Below, one piece after another: positions 42,236-54,049 of a stretch of 64,000 nt of DNA. The stretch is from Escherichia phage naam: sequence record MN850630.1. The stretch is one strand, 5' to 3'. The notes under the pieces are model-generated. The model was not told the origin of the DNA. It did no database searches and saw only the letters and a program-made list of their open reading frames with translations. Within the stretch, counting starts at the first letter, position 1, and each line of letters opens with the position of its first letter. A program made the position numbers and the translations under genes.

Positions 42236-43000
42236 TTGAAATTTATCTACAAAGAACACTACCATAAAGGTGTTGTGTGGAGTCTATTTGACGGGTCTGG
42301 TGGTGCAGTCATTGACTGGGCAAAAGCTGGGTACCTGTGCCTGTGCTTTAATGCAGAAGGCGCTGATCACGGCAGTTATGCAGAGGTGATCACCGATCAT
42401 CCCAACATTCACTATGTGGACTATTGGATTGACCCGTGGTTCCCTCAGGAAACTTTTTGCATGTATCCGGCTCCAGACTTTATTCTTGCATTTCCTCCGT
42501 GCACGCATTTAGCGGTATCAGGTGCTGCACATTTTAAGAAAAAGCTGGCTAAGGACCCCATGATCCAAATTAATGCTGTAAAGGATGCTCGGGTTGCGGA
42601 AGAGCTGGGAGAGATTTACGATTGCCCGTGGCATGTAGAGAATCCTGTGGGTGTTATGTCCACACTGTGGCGCAAACCTGATTACCGTTTTCACCCTTCG
42701 GATTATGGCGGGTATTTACCGGAAGATGATGTAAACCCATGGTTTCCTGAATTTATAGCTCCACGTGATGCCTATCCAAAAATAACTTGCGGCTGGATAG
42801 GTAATGGATTTATAATCCCAGCCACAAAACCTGTCCCGCAAATAGTTGACGCGGTTAGCGGGTATTCCATGCAACACGCCAAGCTGGGTGGAAAGAGTGC
42901 AAGAACGAAGATGATTCGAAGCCTCACACCACGTGGCTGGGCAAAAGCCGTATTCCTAGCAAACGAGCCTGTAGTAAGGAGCAGAATTAATGGGAAGTAA
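42236..43000 (+). CDS. C5-cytosine methyltransferase-like protein with non-canonical motifs and no obvious target-recognition domain
   Basis: Track GTG start 42206 is inside the terminator stem; TTG at 42236 has RBS aggaga. Motif I-like SLFDGSGG, PC-like FPPCTH, ENV-like VENPVG. Confidence 0.45.
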   Translation: MKFIYKEHYHKGVVWSLFDGSGGAVIDWAKAGYLCLCFNAEGADHGSYAEVITDHPNIHYVDYWIDPWFPQETFCMYPAPDFILAFPPCTHLAVSGAAHFKKKLAKDPMIQINAVKDARVAEELGEIYDCPWHVENPVGVMSTLWRKPDYRFHPSDYGGYLPEDDVNPWFPEFIAPRDAYPKITCGWIGNGFIIPATKPVPQIVDAVSGYSMQHAKLGGKSARTKMIRSLTPRGWAKAVFLANEPVVRSRINGK

Positions 43001-45068
43001 ATTTATGGCATCTGCATACAACCGTTTCGGTGAGCCAAACCCGAAAGCAACTAAGTATAAAAGTGGGGGAAGTGTGAAACGAGACTATCGTGATGAAAAA
43101 GAAGTTGAAACTGTAGAGACTGTTTTAGAAAATACTAAAATTGTCCCTGTCCCACAACAAAATATCGGTCTGATGGCTGCACAATATTTTGGTGTGCGAT
43201 CAGCATTGTCACAAGAAGACGGTGTGACAGTCACTGCAACATATTTCCCATATTACGACCGCTACGGAAATCTGTCCGGTTTCAAAAAGCGTGACTGGAC
43301 TATTCCTAAAGAACAAAGGGGCCACTTCTCCGTTGTTGGCATCGTAAAGGCCAACTCCCAGATGTTTGGTCAAAAGCTGTGTGCATCTTCCAACAACCGT
43401 AAGCAGATTAACGTTTGTGAGGGAGAAGGTGATGTTATTGCAGCATGGCAGGCTGCATATCAGATACAAGTAAAAGGGATTCTCACCAACGCTAAAGCCC
43501 CGGCAAAGGTGAAGCAGTGGGCTAAAGAGGTCCAGGACGGGATCGACGCAGTTATCAACGGTGGTGATCTGGCAGGAAAACCCTGCCTGCCTTTTGTTGG
43601 AATTAACTGTGGATGTGCAAACGCAGTAGATACTTTTGCAAACAATGAGAAGTTTATCCGTAGCTATGGAACAGTTGTGCTGGCAATGGATAACGATGCA
43701 GCTAACGAGGTAGAGAAGCAAAAACACGTCATTAAAGGTGTCGAGGCCACGCACAATATCGCAGCATTTTTGATGGCTGATAACGTTTACCACGTAGAAT
43801 ACCCTGGTGAAGTAAACGACCCTGACGGTGTAAAAGATATCCGAGACATGCTGAAGGCTAAAAAGCTGGAAGATATTGTCAACATGTTCCGGCATCCTGT
43901 TAAATATGTGCCTGATGCTGTGTCGGATTTAGAAGACTTCTCTATCGAGTCTTTGCGGAAAAAGACTTCCAACGGGGTAGATATCAGCGCAGAGTTCCCA
44001 AAACTGCAAAAAATGCTAAAAGGCTTGCACAAAGGTACACTCGTAATGCTTACAGGCCCATCAGGTGGCGGTAAAACAACCGTAGCTAAAAAACTGGAAC
44101 ACTGTATTGCAAGATACCTAATGGACCCGACATGCCCGAAGGCTGATGACTATGAAGAGGATGATCGTCTATGTATGATCCATCTTGAGGAGGACCCAGA
44201 GGAAGCAATTAACTCCTTGTATGCAAACCAGTTAGGGTTTGATGTTAAAGAGTTTGTTGAAGATCCTAGCCAGTTTTTAACTGATCAAGAACACGCAGAG
44301 ATTCATCAGTCATGGGCAAAAGCTGGAAAAATCAAAGTGTTCAAACATTTCGGGTCTATTCCGGTGGATGAGTTGATTACCAAGCTTAAGCAAATGGTTT
44401 GCCTGTACCATTGCCGTTATATTGTGCTGGATCACCTGTCCATGGTAATTTCAGGGCTTAATGTTAAGGATGAGCGAAAAGAACTGGACATGGCTATGAC
44501 CCAACTGGCTGCGTTTTGTAAGCAGTTTAATGTGTTTATCTTGGTGATCGCTCACCTCAAACGTACAGAGATTGTGCCTCCTAAGGACAAGGATGGTAAC
44601 CCGTTACCTTTCTGGTATCCTGTGCGAAAAGAGAATTTGCGAGGATCGGCGGGGCTTGAACAGTTGAGTTGGGTAGTCATAGGTGTCGAGGCCGAAGAAA
44701 TGGTGGATCGTTCTCGTGGGCGTGTCCGTCTGGTAGGTCTTAAAAACCGTCCAGCAAAAACTTTAGGTATTGCTGACACTTTAGTTATGGACCCGCACAC
44801 AGGTAAGTTCCATGATGCCAGTAACTGGTACTGGGACAAAGAAATGCAAATGTTTACAGACGGAGAAGGTGGGGAGGTTGTTTGGAGACCTCAGGCTATG
44901 TTTGAGGATCAGGAGCATGCAGTTGTAGAAACACCTATGGGCAAGGTTGTGGCTGATAAGGTTGTAACTCCTACTGTTAAGCCTGTTGACACGCAGGAAG
45001 ACCTCCAGTACGATGATCCGTCCTCTGACCATGTTCCTGGTTTTGAGGATGATGAAACACCTTTTTAA
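42990..45068 (+). CDS. Replicative helicase with N-terminal TOPRIM (primase-like) domain, T7 gp4-like architecture
   Basis: TOPRIM-like CEGEGDV and VVLAMDNDAANE; Walker A LTGPSGGGKTT; DnaB-type FILVIAHLKR; acidic C-terminus ending FEDDETPF. Confidence 0.75.
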   Translation: MGSKFMASAYNRFGEPNPKATKYKSGGSVKRDYRDEKEVETVETVLENTKIVPVPQQNIGLMAAQYFGVRSALSQEDGVTVTATYFPYYDRYGNLSGFKKRDWTIPKEQRGHFSVVGIVKANSQMFGQKLCASSNNRKQINVCEGEGDVIAAWQAAYQIQVKGILTNAKAPAKVKQWAKEVQDGIDAVINGGDLAGKPCLPFVGINCGCANAVDTFANNEKFIRSYGTVVLAMDNDAANEVEKQKHVIKGVEATHNIAAFLMADNVYHVEYPGEVNDPDGVKDIRDMLKAKKLEDIVNMFRHPVKYVPDAVSDLEDFSIESLRKKTSNGVDISAEFPKLQKMLKGLHKGTLVMLTGPSGGGKTTVAKKLEHCIARYLMDPTCPKADDYEEDDRLCMIHLEEDPEEAINSLYANQLGFDVKEFVEDPSQFLTDQEHAEIHQSWAKAGKIKVFKHFGSIPVDELITKLKQMVCLYHCRYIVLDHLSMVISGLNVKDERKELDMAMTQLAAFCKQFNVFILVIAHLKRTEIVPPKDKDGNPLPFWYPVRKENLRGSAGLEQLSWVVIGVEAEEMVDRSRGRVRLVGLKNRPAKTLGIADTLVMDPHTGKFHDASNWYWDKEMQMFTDGEGGEVVWRPQAMFEDQEHAVVETPMGKVVADKVVTPTVKPVDTQEDLQYDDPSSDHVPGFEDDETPF

Positions 45069-45126: not shown

Positions 45127-47904
45127 ATGAGCATGTGGTCGTTCGATTTTGAGTCATCCGGTTTGCTGGAAGACCCAGATCTTTATTATCACTGCGGCCT
45201 GTTTAAAGAGCTGAATAAGAACCGTTTTATGCTGTTCCTTCCTCTGAATGACCGCACACACTACTCCGAGGAGGATATAGAGAAGGCCAAGAACTTTATT
45301 CTGGCAAAGAAAACTCTTTATAAGGATTTTGAAGTTCGCATAGCAGATTTTTCGGAGTTGGAAGGTTGGCTTACAGGAAATTCCGACTGGTCACCAACAG
45401 CTTTGAACTGCCATAACTGCTACAGTTATGACTTTATGCTGATGGAGAGATTATCCGGTATTCATTTTGATATGTTCCGTGATCCTAAATGTATGGGGAC
45501 TATCAACGACCACCAGGTTAACCTGTTTGATACGTTGGCGATGAGCCGAATCTTGTGGCCTGATCGCCCTTTACCAAAAGGTTGTCCGGACTCCGTATTC
45601 AACCCGGTTACTAAGAAAATGCAGCCTGTTGGTCCTCACGGCCTTATGGCATGGGGCTACGCCCTTGGTAACCAGAAAGTTCAAATTGATGACTGGCGCG
45701 ATCTTCCGTTGTGGAAGTATGTGGATCGTGTATTCGAGGACGTTATCATCCAGGAGCTACTCTGGAAAGAGCTGGTAGCGGAATCAAAAGGTGTATTCTA
45801 CGGCAAATCTGACATGCAGAACTTTATGTACGATCCTGCCAAAGAGAAGCCGAAAGGGTTCAAGAAGATCACCTGGAAGAACGCATTGCGCCGGGGTATG
45901 CTGCAACACTTCCTGATGGAGCTGCAGGCCCGTCAGGGTGTGTATTTTGACATAGATGGGGCTATTGCTTTACGTGACCGTTGCGATGCTTGGATGAAAG
46001 AAATCGCTGATCGTGTTGAACCACAACTACCTTTAAAAGAGCTGTCAATGTCTCAGCGGCCCAAGTTCCCTGAAAAGCCGTTTAACCAAGATGGGACAAT
46101 CTCCAATAATGGTTGGAAATGGTTAAAAGATAAGCTTGGCTATCCTGTGGACATGAGTGCTTTAGAGTTCAAGGCCCCGCCTAAGCGAGCATTTACCTCT
46201 ACAGGAGATGTCAGTAAGATGGGGATAAAATGGTGTGAAGAGATGGGCTGCAAAGACCCAGATAAGATGGCTGATTTCTTGAGAGGCTATATTAAGGGCA
46301 CCTCCACACCACAACCTTTGCCTAAAGAGCTAATGGATCAGGCAATAAGTGATCTACAGCAGAAGCGAATGCCGGACTGCAAGATACCTATGAAAATCAG
46401 CAACCAGGACGACATTAAGCGATACCTGATCAGTGCTGGTTGGCTTCCGACAATGTGGAGAACTAAGGATGTAACTAAAGACAGCAAGAAGAAAGCTCTA
46501 CCTGATGCAGATGTTGATGCACGAGTATATGCATATATGGACGAGCTTTTAGAGTCAGAGTATTGTGACCTGATTATCAACTTCTGGAACAAAACTGATG
46601 CTAAGTTCCAGACAACCGTGCACAAGTTCCGAAGCTTTCCTAACTCCGAAAGGATTAAAAAGGAAGTATTCGGGAAAATACGTAGAAAAGCTAGGGCACT
46701 TATTACTTCTCCGCAACTGAAAGATACTTTTGGACACCTATGTCCAAATCTTGAAAAATTGAACGGAGAGATGGCTAAAGATATCGTCTTGTGGTTATCA
46801 TTGCGAAACCGCAGATCGGTCCTTGATCCAATCAAGGAGGATAAGGTTGATACTGGTCTTCTTAATCACCCACGTTTGAAGATTGACCATAAGCTTCCTG
46901 CTAAAAGCTCTGGATTAACAAACACTTCCCGACAGAAACACAGTATTTGTGCAAACATGCCTAAACCATCTCCTAAAGTGGTTATGGGTAAAGAGATGCG
47001 TAGTCTGTGGGGTGTTCCTCCAGGATACTTTGAGATCGGTATTGACGGGTCCAACTTAGAGCAGCTTATCGGGGCTTGGGGTGCCTTTGAGTTCGACAAC
47101 GGCTTGTATTATGATGTTGTAAGTAACGGAGACGCACACCAAAACAACGCCGAGGCATATACAAAAGTAGCAGGCAGAGAGGTATCTCGTAACGACGGTA
47201 AACCTATCACGTATGGGGTTATGTACGGGGCACAAAAAGACAAAGTTGCAGACATGCTGGATATCTCCCCAGAGTTGGGACAAAGGGTAATTGATGCACT
47301 TTGGGATGCCAACCCTGGTCTTAAGGGGCGTAAAGAAGATCTGGAGAAATTCTGGGAAGCAACGGGTAAGAAGTTTATCTACTCTTTTGATGGTCATGCT
47401 ATCTGGACCCGATCTAAACACTCTTTACTTAATGCATACCAACAGAATGGTGGTGCATCGTTGTGTGACTTAGTTGGGATACTCATGCACCACCAAATGG
47501 TGAAGCGTGGGTGGTACGATGAAGGTGTTCGTCGTATTATTTATTACCATGACGAATATCAGCTTCAAGTCCCTGACACACCTAAGTATAAGACTGTGTA
47601 CACCTTCGACACAATTGAAGAACTGGAAGCATTTAAGGCAGAGCAGGAGTCCAAACTTCATGTGTTCGACGGTCATAAGTACAAAAAGGCACGCAAGGAT
47701 GAGGACGGAAACGAAGTGGTTGACAGAGACGGAAACACGGTGTACGATCCTATCCTGAACGATGACGGAAAGCTTGAACTTATCTGGAGCCCTGTGGGTG
47801 AAATGGTGGTGCATTGCTTCTGGCAAGCTTCTAAAATGATGGGCGTCCCGTTTCAGATCACAGGTGAATACCTGTGTGGTCGTAATTGGGGTGATTGTCA
47901 CTAA
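45127..47904 (+). CDS. DNA polymerase, family A (Pol I-like) with N-terminal exonuclease region
   Basis: Motif B-like RNDGKPITYGVMYGAQ, motif C YYHDEYQLQV, N-terminal FDFESSGL exo-like motif; 925 aa. Confidence 0.85.
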   Translation: MSMWSFDFESSGLLEDPDLYYHCGLFKELNKNRFMLFLPLNDRTHYSEEDIEKAKNFILAKKTLYKDFEVRIADFSELEGWLTGNSDWSPTALNCHNCYSYDFMLMERLSGIHFDMFRDPKCMGTINDHQVNLFDTLAMSRILWPDRPLPKGCPDSVFNPVTKKMQPVGPHGLMAWGYALGNQKVQIDDWRDLPLWKYVDRVFEDVIIQELLWKELVAESKGVFYGKSDMQNFMYDPAKEKPKGFKKITWKNALRRGMLQHFLMELQARQGVYFDIDGAIALRDRCDAWMKEIADRVEPQLPLKELSMSQRPKFPEKPFNQDGTISNNGWKWLKDKLGYPVDMSALEFKAPPKRAFTSTGDVSKMGIKWCEEMGCKDPDKMADFLRGYIKGTSTPQPLPKELMDQAISDLQQKRMPDCKIPMKISNQDDIKRYLISAGWLPTMWRTKDVTKDSKKKALPDADVDARVYAYMDELLESEYCDLIINFWNKTDAKFQTTVHKFRSFPNSERIKKEVFGKIRRKARALITSPQLKDTFGHLCPNLEKLNGEMAKDIVLWLSLRNRRSVLDPIKEDKVDTGLLNHPRLKIDHKLPAKSSGLTNTSRQKHSICANMPKPSPKVVMGKEMRSLWGVPPGYFEIGIDGSNLEQLIGAWGAFEFDNGLYYDVVSNGDAHQNNAEAYTKVAGREVSRNDGKPITYGVMYGAQKDKVADMLDISPELGQRVIDALWDANPGLKGRKEDLEKFWEATGKKFIYSFDGHAIWTRSKHSLLNAYQQNGGASLCDLVGILMHHQMVKRGWYDEGVRRIIYYHDEYQLQVPDTPKYKTVYTFDTIEELEAFKAEQESKLHVFDGHKYKKARKDEDGNEVVDRDGNTVYDPILNDDGKLELIWSPVGEMVVHCFWQASKMMGVPFQITGEYLCGRNWGDCH

Positions 47905-50717: not shown

Positions 50718-51083
50718 ATGGAACAAATGAACGATCAAGCGTCGGTTGCGATGAACGAGCAAGAACAACCTCAAGAATTTTTCTTAGGGTTAAGTAAAGA
50801 TCAAGTGTCTCTTCTGCTAGTGCTTTCTTCTTTCATGGGAAGACTTCAGGAGCTTACACAACAGCCAGAGGCTGAACAATTATTCCAGGCTCTGCGTGAA
50901 GAAGAAAAATATCGTCGTTTGGACTATGCCTTAGGTTGGGTAGCTCAACAACGGGATATGCTGATGGCCCTCTCTGGGACCACAAGTTTTGCAATGGGCC
51001 TGCTGGCTCAAGTTCAGGACAAATTAATTCAAGCAGGGTTTGCACACACGGCAAACACTAACGAAGAACAAGGAGACAAATAA
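50718..51083 (+). CDS. Hypothetical protein
   Basis: 121 aa ORF with RBS ggag; coupled to the SSB-like gene. Confidence 0.5.
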   Translation: MEQMNDQASVAMNEQEQPQEFFLGLSKDQVSLLLVLSSFMGRLQELTQQPEAEQLFQALREEEKYRRLDYALGWVAQQRDMLMALSGTTSFAMGLLAQVQDKLIQAGFAHTANTNEEQGDK

Positions 51084-52309
51084 TGAGCGTTATCCAACAA
51101 TTCGCTAACCCGATGAATCCGCGTGAAACTGTTTTACTGGCTCACGGCATGATTAAACGTGTCAGCATCAAGCCTATCAAAGGTGCTGATCCTACAACAG
51201 GTATTAAAACCACTGTGTGGCAAGGTAAGAAAATTGAATCCAGCCACACCATCTCTTTACTGATTTCTGAACTGGATTCCTCTGATAACCTGCTTCAAGG
51301 TGGTGAAGAAGTCTGGATCAGCATGGGTGATAAACTGCTTAAACCGGGTCATCAAGACTCTGTCTCTGTTAAGATTGATGACAAGTGGGAAACCGTAACG
51401 CCAGGATGGATCGTAAATATCCCTTTGAAGGCAAACGAGCATAACGGTAAGACCTATTACAAAGGCTCACTGGCTAAGATGGTTAAGCTGGGTGCAGGAG
51501 AGGCTCCAGCAGCGGCTCAGCAGCAAAAACAGCAACAAGGTGCACAATCACAAGGCCAGAAGCAGAAACCTCAGCAGAATGCCAATCAGGACGTTTTACG
51601 CATCTATGGTGATGTGACTCAGATTGTTGGCAACGTGGTTACTGTTAATGACCACAAGATTGGCGAAGGTGCTATGGTTGTCACTGATGAGCAGCTTAAA
51701 GACCTGGTGGTAGGTGGTCGTGTTGCAGCCATTGTTGACAAAGACACCGGAAACATTATCAGTGGTTTCAAGGCCTATCCTCCTAAGGCAGAGAACGGCA
51801 CTCAAGGCTCTGGTGGCAAGCGTAAATCCTCTTACGACCCTATCGGTGTGGAGACGGGACATAGCATCAATGCGTTGCAGATCATCCTGGATCGCGGGTT
51901 TAAGGTGGACGACCCACTAGGCGTGGCTAAAACACTGCACGTAGTCACCATTGAGCTTAAGAAAGAGTATGCTCAAGCCACCAACCGAACTGAAGATGAA
52001 GTAGGTGCCAGTGTCGGCAATGCGGTGTTGAACGCTTGTCGCCGTATTGACAAGAAAACGAAAGTTGATGATTTTGCAGCGGCAATTACTGCAGAAGCAA
52101 AAGATGTCTTGACTAATCTGGCTGAGCCGTTGTACGATTGGATCAAGAACGGTGCTGGGTCCACTGACCATCAAGAACCTCAAGCTGCCAAACAGGAAGC
52201 AGCTCCACAGCAAAACACTGTAGACGCTCCTCCTGTAAATGACGAGGAAGATGACCCGATGGATCAGAATCCAGCACAGTACGCCTTTGATGATGACATC
52301 CCATTCTAA
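51083..52309 (+). CDS. ssDNA-binding protein-like, with Q-rich linker and E. coli SSB-type acidic tip
   Basis: Ends PMDQNPAQYAFDDDIPF; E. coli SSB ends MDFDDDIPF; internal QQQKQQQGAQSQGQKQKPQQ low-complexity linker. Confidence 0.55.
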   Translation: MSVIQQFANPMNPRETVLLAHGMIKRVSIKPIKGADPTTGIKTTVWQGKKIESSHTISLLISELDSSDNLLQGGEEVWISMGDKLLKPGHQDSVSVKIDDKWETVTPGWIVNIPLKANEHNGKTYYKGSLAKMVKLGAGEAPAAAQQQKQQQGAQSQGQKQKPQQNANQDVLRIYGDVTQIVGNVVTVNDHKIGEGAMVVTDEQLKDLVVGGRVAAIVDKDTGNIISGFKAYPPKAENGTQGSGGKRKSSYDPIGVETGHSINALQIILDRGFKVDDPLGVAKTLHVVTIELKKEYAQATNRTEDEVGASVGNAVLNACRRIDKKTKVDDFAAAITAEAKDVLTNLAEPLYDWIKNGAGSTDHQEPQAAKQEAAPQQNTVDAPPVNDEEDDPMDQNPAQYAFDDDIPF

Positions 52310-52324
52310 CATCTAGTTAACATA

Positions 52325-52353
52325 GCCCTGCCCGAAAGGGTGGGGCATTTTTG
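52325..52353 (+). terminator. Rho-independent terminator, GAAA-tetraloop hairpin (same 22-nt hairpin as at 42191)
   Basis: gccctgcccgaaagggtggggc followed by atttttg. Confidence 0.8.
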
Positions 52354-52371
52354 TATAAGGAGATCTGAAAA

Positions 52372-53150: not shown

Positions 53151-53576
53151 ATGATCTATGAAATGCCAAAACTGATTCGTGACGATGCCCAAAACGCTCA
53201 CACCATTATTATGGGCAAACGAATGGATATTATTTGTCATAAAGATTTCTGGGAAGGAAGTTACTTCACAGAGTATTTTGGTAAACTGGACAATGGTCTG
53301 CTGATCCAGTTCTACACCGATGCGGAAAACAACATTCACTGGGAGTTCGAAACTGAAGATATCCATAAACTTTTCACCTTCCTCGATATTAAGGTTGAGG
53401 CCAAGTTTGAAGAAGGTGAGTGCGACGATTGTGGATTCTATGAGGTAACAGATTTCTATCTCCCGAGTGGTGAGAACCTTTACTATGAAAGCCACTTCGG
53501 TAACTCCAATATGCCACAGTGCTGGACTGAGTTTTTTGAAATTGCGGAAGAGGAGCTGGCATACCGTGATTATTGA
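53151..53576 (+). CDS. Hypothetical protein
   Basis: 141 aa ORF. Confidence 0.5.
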   Translation: MIYEMPKLIRDDAQNAHTIIMGKRMDIICHKDFWEGSYFTEYFGKLDNGLLIQFYTDAENNIHWEFETEDIHKLFTFLDIKVEAKFEEGECDDCGFYEVTDFYLPSGENLYYESHFGNSNMPQCWTEFFEIAEEELAYRDY

Positions 53577-54024
53577 TACTGTAGAGGGAGATCTAATCTC
53601 CATTTTCAAGAAAGGGTCAGGCCACATGATCCACGGTTGTAACTGCTTTCACACAATGGGTGCAGGTATAGCGAAAGATATTGCCCGTGAGTTCCCTCAA
53701 GCACTGGCAGCCGACAAAGAGACTGCTTATGGTAATCTAGACAAGTTGGGTATGTTTTCTTGTTGGGAGCATTTTGCCAAGAACAGGGTCGTATATGGAA
53801 TCAACCTGTATACCCAGTTCTACCCAGGGCCCAATGCTGAATACTTCTCAATCATGAAAGGTTTTGAGCGAGTCAACGAGGTATTCAAAGGTGTGTCATT
53901 GCCGTTCTACATTCCTAAAATCGGATGCGGTATTGGCGGTCTAAAGTGGGAACATGTAGAAGATGTAATTAATCTTGCAACCACAGATATTGATGTGGTT
54001 GTGGTAGAGTACAAAAAGTGTTGA
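53566..54024 (+). CDS. Macro-domain protein (ADP-ribose binding / de-ADP-ribosylating), candidate anti-defence factor
   Basis: Track start 53467 overlaps the upstream gene by 110 nt; GTG at 53566 is just before the fold begins. EGDLISIF...HMIHGCNCFHTMGAGIAKDI resembles the GDIT...NAAN...GGGV macro motif. Confidence 0.5.
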   Translation: MIIDTVEGDLISIFKKGSGHMIHGCNCFHTMGAGIAKDIAREFPQALAADKETAYGNLDKLGMFSCWEHFAKNRVVYGINLYTQFYPGPNAEYFSIMKGFERVNEVFKGVSLPFYIPKIGCGIGGLKWEHVEDVINLATTDIDVVVVEYKKC

Positions 54025-54049
54025 CGACCATCTTCTGAGGTGATATAGT
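54021..54049 (+). promoter_or_regulatory. Sigma70-like promoter (TTGACG-17-TATAGT)
   Basis: -35 overlaps the macro-domain gene stop codon. Confidence 0.55.

Follow-up and report, generated by a model that had tools for sequence, protein, structure and literature searches.

We find that a 408-amino acid (aa) protein encoded by Escherichia phage naam is probably the replicative SSB (single-stranded DNA-binding protein) of a T7-type replisome, in which a non-canonical scaffold carries a bacterial-type SSB C-terminal tip (SSB-Ct). Its gene lies at positions 51083..52309 of the 64,000-nucleotide (nt) stretch analyzed here, taken from sequence record MN850630.1 and hereafter called the window. In bacteria, the C-terminal tip of SSB is the hub that brings more than a dozen replication and repair proteins to single-stranded DNA (ssDNA). 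We favor the phage-SSB reading because of the tip itself, the replication-module context of the gene, the lack of any alternative SSB in our searches, a second tip on the phage primase-helicase, and the independent agreement of a recent preprint.

That preprint, by Sanchez-Nieto et al. (bioRxiv 10.64898/2026.04.29.721553, 30 April 2026), concerns Bas52_0087 (QXV84166.1) of phage Bas52 (RudolfGeigy), which was read as SSB-like from AlphaFold2 and Phold, with two oligonucleotide/oligosaccharide-binding (OB) folds, a disordered C-terminus, and an E. coli-like FDDDIPF C-tip. The locus tag bas52_0087 belongs to a 1227-nt open reading frame (ORF) whose position corresponds by homology to that of the window ORF. 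Three substitutions in 408 residues (A145T, A369T and A401S) separate the two proteins, which represent the same gene, with the same position, length (408 aa) and tip and no material difference in the protein. The SSB-like fold and E. coli-type tip are therefore already published in preprint form, and the finding is not new, because the preprint describes the 99.3%-identical Bas52_0087 in the same way. What we add is the recognition of a helical bundle as a separate and best-conserved domain, the size of the family and the conservation of its tip, the synteny of the gene, the lack of a further SSB, a sister tip carried by the helicase, and an optional extension behind the tip. The SSB-like protein is not a subject of the papers on retron Eco2, Retron-Eco7, BME3 and CF01.

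The C-terminal tip and its family

The gene and its tip are placed as follows.

51083..52309, + strand: gene of the SSB-like protein, ATG start, 408 aa plus stop codon, the longest ORF at the locus; ortholog of Bas52_0087 / rV5 ORF214 (same position, 99.3% identity)
52286..52306, + strand: C-terminal tip FDDDIPF, residues 402-408, the same seven residues with which E. coli SSB ends (SSB-Ct)

An earlier reading of the DNA (the original prediction) held that the 408-aa protein carries the exact tip of E. coli SSB, and both the ORF translation and an alignment to Protein Data Bank (PDB) entry 1EQQ bear this out. The translation ends PMDQNPAQYAFDDDIPF before the stop codon, that is ...DDPMDQNPAQYAFDDDIPF (...AQYAFDDDIPF), and the E. 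coli SSB terminus, ...NEPPMDFDDDIPF, was seen in the alignment of the family profile to 1EQQ. When this profile was searched against all PDB sequences, 1EQQ was the best match, through the last 27 residues only (...SNEPPMDFDDDIPF). The tip is preceded by a disordered linker (residues 359-401) and fits the SSB consensus D-D-D-[IL]-P-F, and many family members share with E. coli SSB the longer (E/Q/D)PPMDFDDDIPF. The chance of an exact six-residue C-terminal match is about 20^-6 (roughly 1.6e-8) per protein. Because of this low probability and the family-wide conservation of the tip, its identity with that of E. coli SSB is, as judged from sequence, not due to chance.

The window protein belongs to the Bas52_0087 / PHROG 4477 family, matching phrog_4477 with an E-value of 1.1e-173, its residues 1-408 aligning to positions 1-393 of the profile. 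A word-indexed search recovered 59 clusters of this family; with an exhaustive profile search the number rose to 263 at 50% identity, of which 181 had E <1e-10. In most members, 270-300 aa make up the N-terminal domain, the bundle and the tail. P407 and F408 are invariant across 29 homologs with identity down to 28%. Among 160 aligned family representatives, 127 have an xPF terminus (IPF in 84, LPF in 23 and VPF in 16, together 123), 14 end in another aromatic residue, and nine have the tip followed by an extension; the last ten residues contain a mean of four acidic residues. Among isolates of known host, we found none closely related to the LPF-tipped members.

Pfam searches of the SSB-like protein gave no match at E-values up to 1, and a PDB sequence search gave none. 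On homology grounds the protein is not a member of the Pfam SSB family PF00436, because its DNA-binding part shows no homology to that family: Pfam gave no match, phmmer gave noise, and the PDB profile search matched E. coli SSB through the tail only. Existing annotation says little about the family. The gene is called 'hypothetical protein' in nearly all rV5-like records matching the region, as it is in most of the 358 phage records that match the PHROG 4477 protein. A few GenBank records (JLBYU08, Mt1B1_P17, KP2025, ESCO5 and phAPEC8_ev052) do carry an 'SSB' label. We did not count these labels as independent evidence, because in the Mt1B1_P17 protein, the one 'SSB'-labelled protein scanned that matched an SSB PHROG, the SSB profiles cover only the last 43-48 residues.

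Predicted domain architecture

An AlphaFold2 model built with a 29-sequence alignment contains three confident domains with disordered linkers between them. The segments are listed below with the model's predicted local distance difference test (pLDDT) scores where these are informative.

51083..51499, + strand: N-terminal all-beta domain, residues 1-139, about ten strands in AlphaFold2, an elaborated OB-like fold
51500..51589, + strand: disordered Q-rich linker, residues 140-169, pLDDT 26-36, of variable length between close relatives
51590..51790, + strand: small five-stranded barrel, residues 170-236, in the OB order b1-b2-b3-short helix-b4-b5, pLDDT 82-87
51833..52156, + strand: four-helix bundle, residues 251-358, the best-conserved part of the family (occupancy 0.92)
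52157..52285, + strand: disordered acidic Q/P/A/E-rich linker, residues 359-401, pLDDT <50, analogous to the intrinsically disordered linker of SSB

In this model, residues 1-139 are presumably the main ssDNA-binding domain. Conservation within it falls on T/S54-H55, W78, K97, G108, K123 and Y126, and the aromatic and basic residues among these would be of the kind required on an ssDNA-binding OB surface. The middle barrel is an insertion of the rV5/PVP-SE1-like subset (column occupancy 0.37) and is absent from the majority of approximately 270-300 aa. Foldseek global E-values were weak (at least 0.015), and local matches over 65-77 columns were obtained to the OB domains of IF1, RPA and proteasome Rpt with probabilities of 0.98-1.00; we assign these local matches to the middle barrel (residues 170-236) because of their length. 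Further Foldseek entries are phage DUF2815 (gp2.5-like), the SSB of D. radiodurans and that of lactococcal phage p2.

The four-helix bundle has conserved residues at D252, G255, G259, H260, N263, H286, T289, G308 and G312, and its fold has no convincing solved relative. Judging from the model, it probably mediates self-association. Two positions that are altered in Bas52 mutants escaping the DRT10 defence, D252 and Y351, fall within this domain. The window protein has both; of the 160 family representatives, 135 have D252, and of the 29 sequences of alignment A1, 22 have Y351.

Structure prediction had been proposed as a way to look for an OB fold, and AlphaFold2 with Foldseek does give OB-type beta domains. 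The model likewise supports the proposal of a phage SSB with an extra domain, in the form of OB-type domains with the small barrel and the four-helix bundle. The proposed resemblance of the Q-rich linker to that of SSB held in part. The stretch QQQKQQQGAQSQGQKQKPQQ at residues 146-165 is of low complexity, and residues 140-169 are disordered (pLDDT <50), but this linker lies between the first and second beta domains, not beside the tip; it is also poorly conserved, with a 13-residue deletion in relative P0005. The segment that does adjoin the C-terminus, residues 359-408 (linker plus tip), is disordered and has a net charge of -12.

We also observed domain mosaicism in alignment A1. When P0040, P0041 and P0043 are compared with P0007 and P0010, the N-terminal domain is strongly diverged, and the Q-rich linker and middle barrel are near-identical to those of other lineages. 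This pattern suggests recombination between domain-coding segments.

The overall plan resembles that of E. coli SSB (PF00436), which likewise combines an OB-type part, a disordered low-complexity linker and the tip (F)DDDIPF, although the similarity of the DNA-binding part is at the level of predicted fold only, with no detectable sequence homology. The phage protein is more than twice as long as bacterial SSB, and its second barrel and four-helix bundle are not found there. Bacterial SSB tetramerizes through its OB domain, whereas the phage protein would probably self-associate through a separate helical domain. A relationship to multi-OB binders of the RPA type is not supported by homology, and the organization differs: RPA is a heterotrimer and the phage protein a single polypeptide, the phage helical bundle is not a winged helix, and the phage protein has the bacterial-type acidic tip.

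An OB part joined to a helical domain could also describe a RecO-like recombination mediator or single-strand-annealing protein and not a general ssDNA coater, an option that we consider very improbable. RecO-type mediators bind the SSB tip instead of carrying one. The phage protein lacks a zinc or RecO signature as well as any Pfam match, its helical domain searched alone gives no RecO-like match, and its gene adjoins replication genes, not recombination genes.

The replication module and the partners of the tip

Two replisome genes of the window bear directly on the function of the SSB-like protein.

42990..45068, + strand: T7 gp4-type primase-helicase, 692 aa (phrog_239 DNA primase/helicase, E 7e-160)
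45042-45065, + strand: second acidic ...PF tip, FEDDETPF, the last eight residues of the helicase
45127..47904, + strand: family-A (T7-like) DNA polymerase, 925 aa, with a C-terminal His

The SSB-like gene lies downstream of these two genes, with small ORFs between. The order Toprim/DnaB primase-helicase, PolA, a few small ORFs and SSB-like gene is also found in three distant metagenomic relatives (L007-L009), and in the Phapecoctavirus-like phage KP2025 the SSB-like gene comes after an annotated DNA polymerase. The analogy to T7 gp4/gp2.5 drawn in the original prediction is thus matched by a T7-type replisome module whose order recurs in distant relatives, and the FEDDETPF terminus claimed for the helicase was confirmed by ORF translation, which reads ...SSDHVPGFEDDETPF before the stop codon (...GFEDDETPF).

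No other candidate for an SSB emerged. The rV5 genome paper lists a ligase, a polymerase and two helicases and no SSB, and none is annotated in the Bas52 genome outside the part equivalent to the window. Searching 932 ORFs (the window plus the rest of the Bas52 genome) by phmmer with the OB domains of the E. coli and mEp235 SSBs returned only noise (E >0.6). Within the same 932-ORF set, an acidic ...PF tip occurs on just two proteins, the SSB-like protein and the primase-helicase.

This arrangement recalls T7, where gp2.5, gp4 and gp5 likewise unite a non-canonical phage SSB with a gp4-type primase-helicase and a family-A polymerase, and where the SSB and helicase tails are both acidic with a terminal Phe, as in the window phage. 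The tails of T7 gp2.5 and gp4 bind the phage polymerase. In the window, the family-A polymerase is a candidate phage partner for both acidic tips; a C-terminal His is also present on the polymerases of L007 and L008. The likeness to T7 has limits, as we found no sequence match to gp2.5 and a weak Foldseek match to gp2.5-like DUF2815 structures (E ~0.06). The window tip follows the bacterial DDDIPF pattern and the T7 tail ends ...DF, and domain architecture and size also differ.

A further feature of the family is a conserved extension of about 15 aa after ...DDDIPF, with the pattern AP[IV]GLQY-x3-4-[IL][HY][AVC][LIM]. It is absent from the window, where it would follow position 52306. Its carriers include some PHROG 4477 proteins, canonical SSBs of unrelated phages (lambdoid mEp235, Vibrio and Proteus), and the primase-helicase of Klebsiella phage KpS8, which ends ...GPDDDTPF and then APIGLQYAKHAIYVI. 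The extension was seen in the following places.

Loci: L005 (rV5 ORF214), L003:2596-3528, L006:1578-2084 and L014 (helicase end at 1581)
Proteins: P0006, P0019, P0044, P0048, P0050, P0051 and P0055

That the KpS8 helicase combines DDDTPF with an extension known from SSB-like proteins argues for a shared docking logic. As to what the extension does, a second docking motif or a degron would be our guesses. Stop-codon readthrough into an 'APIGLQY' extension in the window can be discarded, as what follows downstream is a terminator hairpin without coding sequence for the extension.

These observations bear on whether the tip addresses the phage or the host. Host partners of SSB-Ct recognize the free carboxylate of the terminal Phe, which the extension variants hide. 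The tip might then serve the phage replisome only, as in T7, with the tails of the SSB-like protein and the helicase docking on basic patches of the polymerase and with the identity to the host tip arising by convergence or as a borrowed peptide. We regard this as possible and hold it tentatively. It gains from the T7-type replisome genes, with both proteins ending in an acidic ...PF, from the tip-plus-extension module on helicases or SSB-like proteins of related phages, and from the Phe-terminal helicase tails in three of the four loci examined, although only the window helicase resembles the SSB tip. By contrast, the consensus D-D-[IVL]-P-F and PPMDFDDDIPF are the bacterial SSB-Ct pattern and not the T7-type ...DF, and host-like canonical SSBs of unrelated temperate phages have the same tip and extension. 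A host-side effect is also indicated by the preprint's genetic connection with ExoI.

This connection comes from the reverse-transcriptase defence DRT10 (UG17), whose trigger the preprint identifies genetically as Bas52_0087, in balance with ExoI. Bas52 escapes DRT10 through D252V or Y351C in Bas52_0087, expression of the wild-type protein strengthens DRT10 restriction during infection, and overexpression of ExoI/SbcB weakens the defence (10.64898/2026.04.29.721553). One could therefore imagine a decoy for the host SSB interactome, in which the tip sequesters or redirects ExoI, RecQ, PriA, RecG and Ung in an anti-host or anti-defence role and ssDNA coating is secondary or absent. The host-identical tip, with a match that reaches PPMDFDDDIPF in many members, and the setting of DRT10 activity by ExoI dosage and Bas52_0087 are in keeping with such a role, but we judge it unlikely. 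The gene keeps its position inside the replication module of distant phages, the model has two OB-type domains, the phage has no other SSB available, and the similar tip on the helicase suits replisome assembly better. Expression of the protein alone is also non-toxic to E. coli, where strong titration of SSB partners would presumably be harmful.

Several results weigh against the reading of the protein as a phage SSB with a host-type tip. Bas52_0087 expressed alone was neither toxic to E. coli nor enough to trigger DRT10 (10.64898/2026.04.29.721553), a result that makes strong competition for the host SSB hub less likely when phage DNA is absent. The DRT10 escape mutations sit in the helical bundle, outside both the tip and the OB domains. 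There is no sequence homology to SSB families beyond the tail, as the PHROG SSB and PDB profile matches cover the last 27-48 residues. Finally, rV5 itself and several relatives have the 15-aa extension behind the tip; as it masks the carboxylate of the tip Phe, strictly host-type docking may not be essential.

Taking both sides together, we still favor a replicative phage SSB, and propose that its beta domains would coat ssDNA at the phage fork, that the bundle would supply cooperativity or oligomerization, and that the flexible tail would offer a docking peptide fitting the pockets in which the host SSB tip is bound, for example those of ExoI/SbcB, the chi subunit, PriA and RecQ. An additional or alternative target of the tail may be a site on the phage's own polymerase, in the manner of the T7 gp2.5 and gp4 tails. 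Loading of phage ssDNA with host-type tips, together with competition with host SSB, would alter the processing of host ssDNA, and it is this alteration that DRT10 appears to sense. Host partners are favored because the tip is identical to the host's and because of the ExoI genetics of the preprint, and a common phage partner, most simply the polymerase, is favored because of the sister tip on the helicase and the extension-masked tip variants; both may be true. Readings as a pure decoy, as an annealing mediator or as a protein that does not bind DNA are less likely.

Genomic setting and implications

Across the window region, identity to rV5-like Vequintavirus phages of E. coli (among them JeffSchatz, RudolfGeigy and Murica) is 97-98%, and the window phage is itself an rV5-like Vequintavirus. 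Some 20 records named 'Campylobacter phage' (MG0656xx, host C. jejuni) are 97-99% identical to rV5-like or phi92-like phages of E. coli and probably represent mislabelled hosts or contaminating coliphages. The SSB-like gene is flanked by the following features.

50718..51083, + strand: upstream 121-aa ORF, PHROG 7310 'unknown function'
51070..51075, + strand: ribosome-binding site AAGGAG of the SSB-like gene, 7 nt 5' of the ATG
52325..52356, + strand: intrinsic-terminator-like hairpin of 9 base pairs (bp), 7 of them GC, then a T-run, 16 nt past the stop codon of the SSB-like gene

The stop codon of the 121-aa ORF overlaps the ATG of the SSB-like gene in the sequence TAATG (within 51041-51090), and the two genes are apparently translationally coupled. 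The JLBYU08 record labels both of them 'putative ssDNA-binding protein'. For the 121-aa ORF, this label (GenBank OK272482, JLBYU08) comes without an SSB-like match and appears unsupported. We considered whether this ORF might encode a conserved partner of the SSB-like protein or a second subunit of the SSB and rejected the idea: Pfam and PHROG searches gave no informative match, unrelated genes lie upstream in Phapecoctavirus-like phages, and the ORF is not kept beside the SSB-like gene outside the rV5-like phages. A few genes further downstream, at about 53567-54025 of the window, related records (JLBYU08_122 and rV5_ev147) annotate a macro-domain (ADP-ribose-binding, Poa1p-like) protein.

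The 3' end of the SSB-like gene is a site of gene insertion in related phages. In rV5, bov10K2, slur16 and PMBT16, an 'endonuclease VII'-type nuclease cassette of about 650 bp stands directly behind the IPF codon in place of the 13 nt at window positions 52307-52319, with the insertion point just upstream of the site of the terminator-like hairpin. In rV5 (DQ832317 121386-122009, our locus L005) the cassette encodes ORF213 (207 aa). The ATG of the nuclease lies within the DNA coding for the extension, and the window phage has neither cassette nor extension. The cassette resembles a homing-nuclease gene of the free-standing kind that sits where the SSB-like gene has its conserved 3' end. As a sole explanation, the extension cannot be a mere by-product of this cassette: the mEp235 SSB, the Mt1B1_P17 protein and the KpS8 helicase all have the extension without an adjacent nuclease.

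A predicted SSB in this position has consequences for the annotation of the family. PHROG 4477, currently of 'unknown function', can be relabelled as a predicted non-canonical SSB, and this label fills in the missing SSB of rV5-, phi92- and phAPEC8-like phages. With the host tip on a scaffold of another kind, a phage SSB could draw in or misdirect the proteins of the SSB hub, and the helical domain, the sister tip on the helicase and the extension behind the tip are concrete handles for experiments.

More speculatively, the acidic ...PF tip, with or without the 15-aa extension, might be a portable docking module exchanged among the canonical SSBs, PHROG 4477 SSBs and primase-helicases of gammaproteobacterial phages. 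Such a module could let a T7-type replisome join or perturb the host SSB hub, with the bundle as the oligomerization element that is read by DRT10. If this is true, the family would be a tractable system for studying two things, the takeover of the SSB interactome by phages and the sensing of this takeover by a reverse-transcriptase defence.

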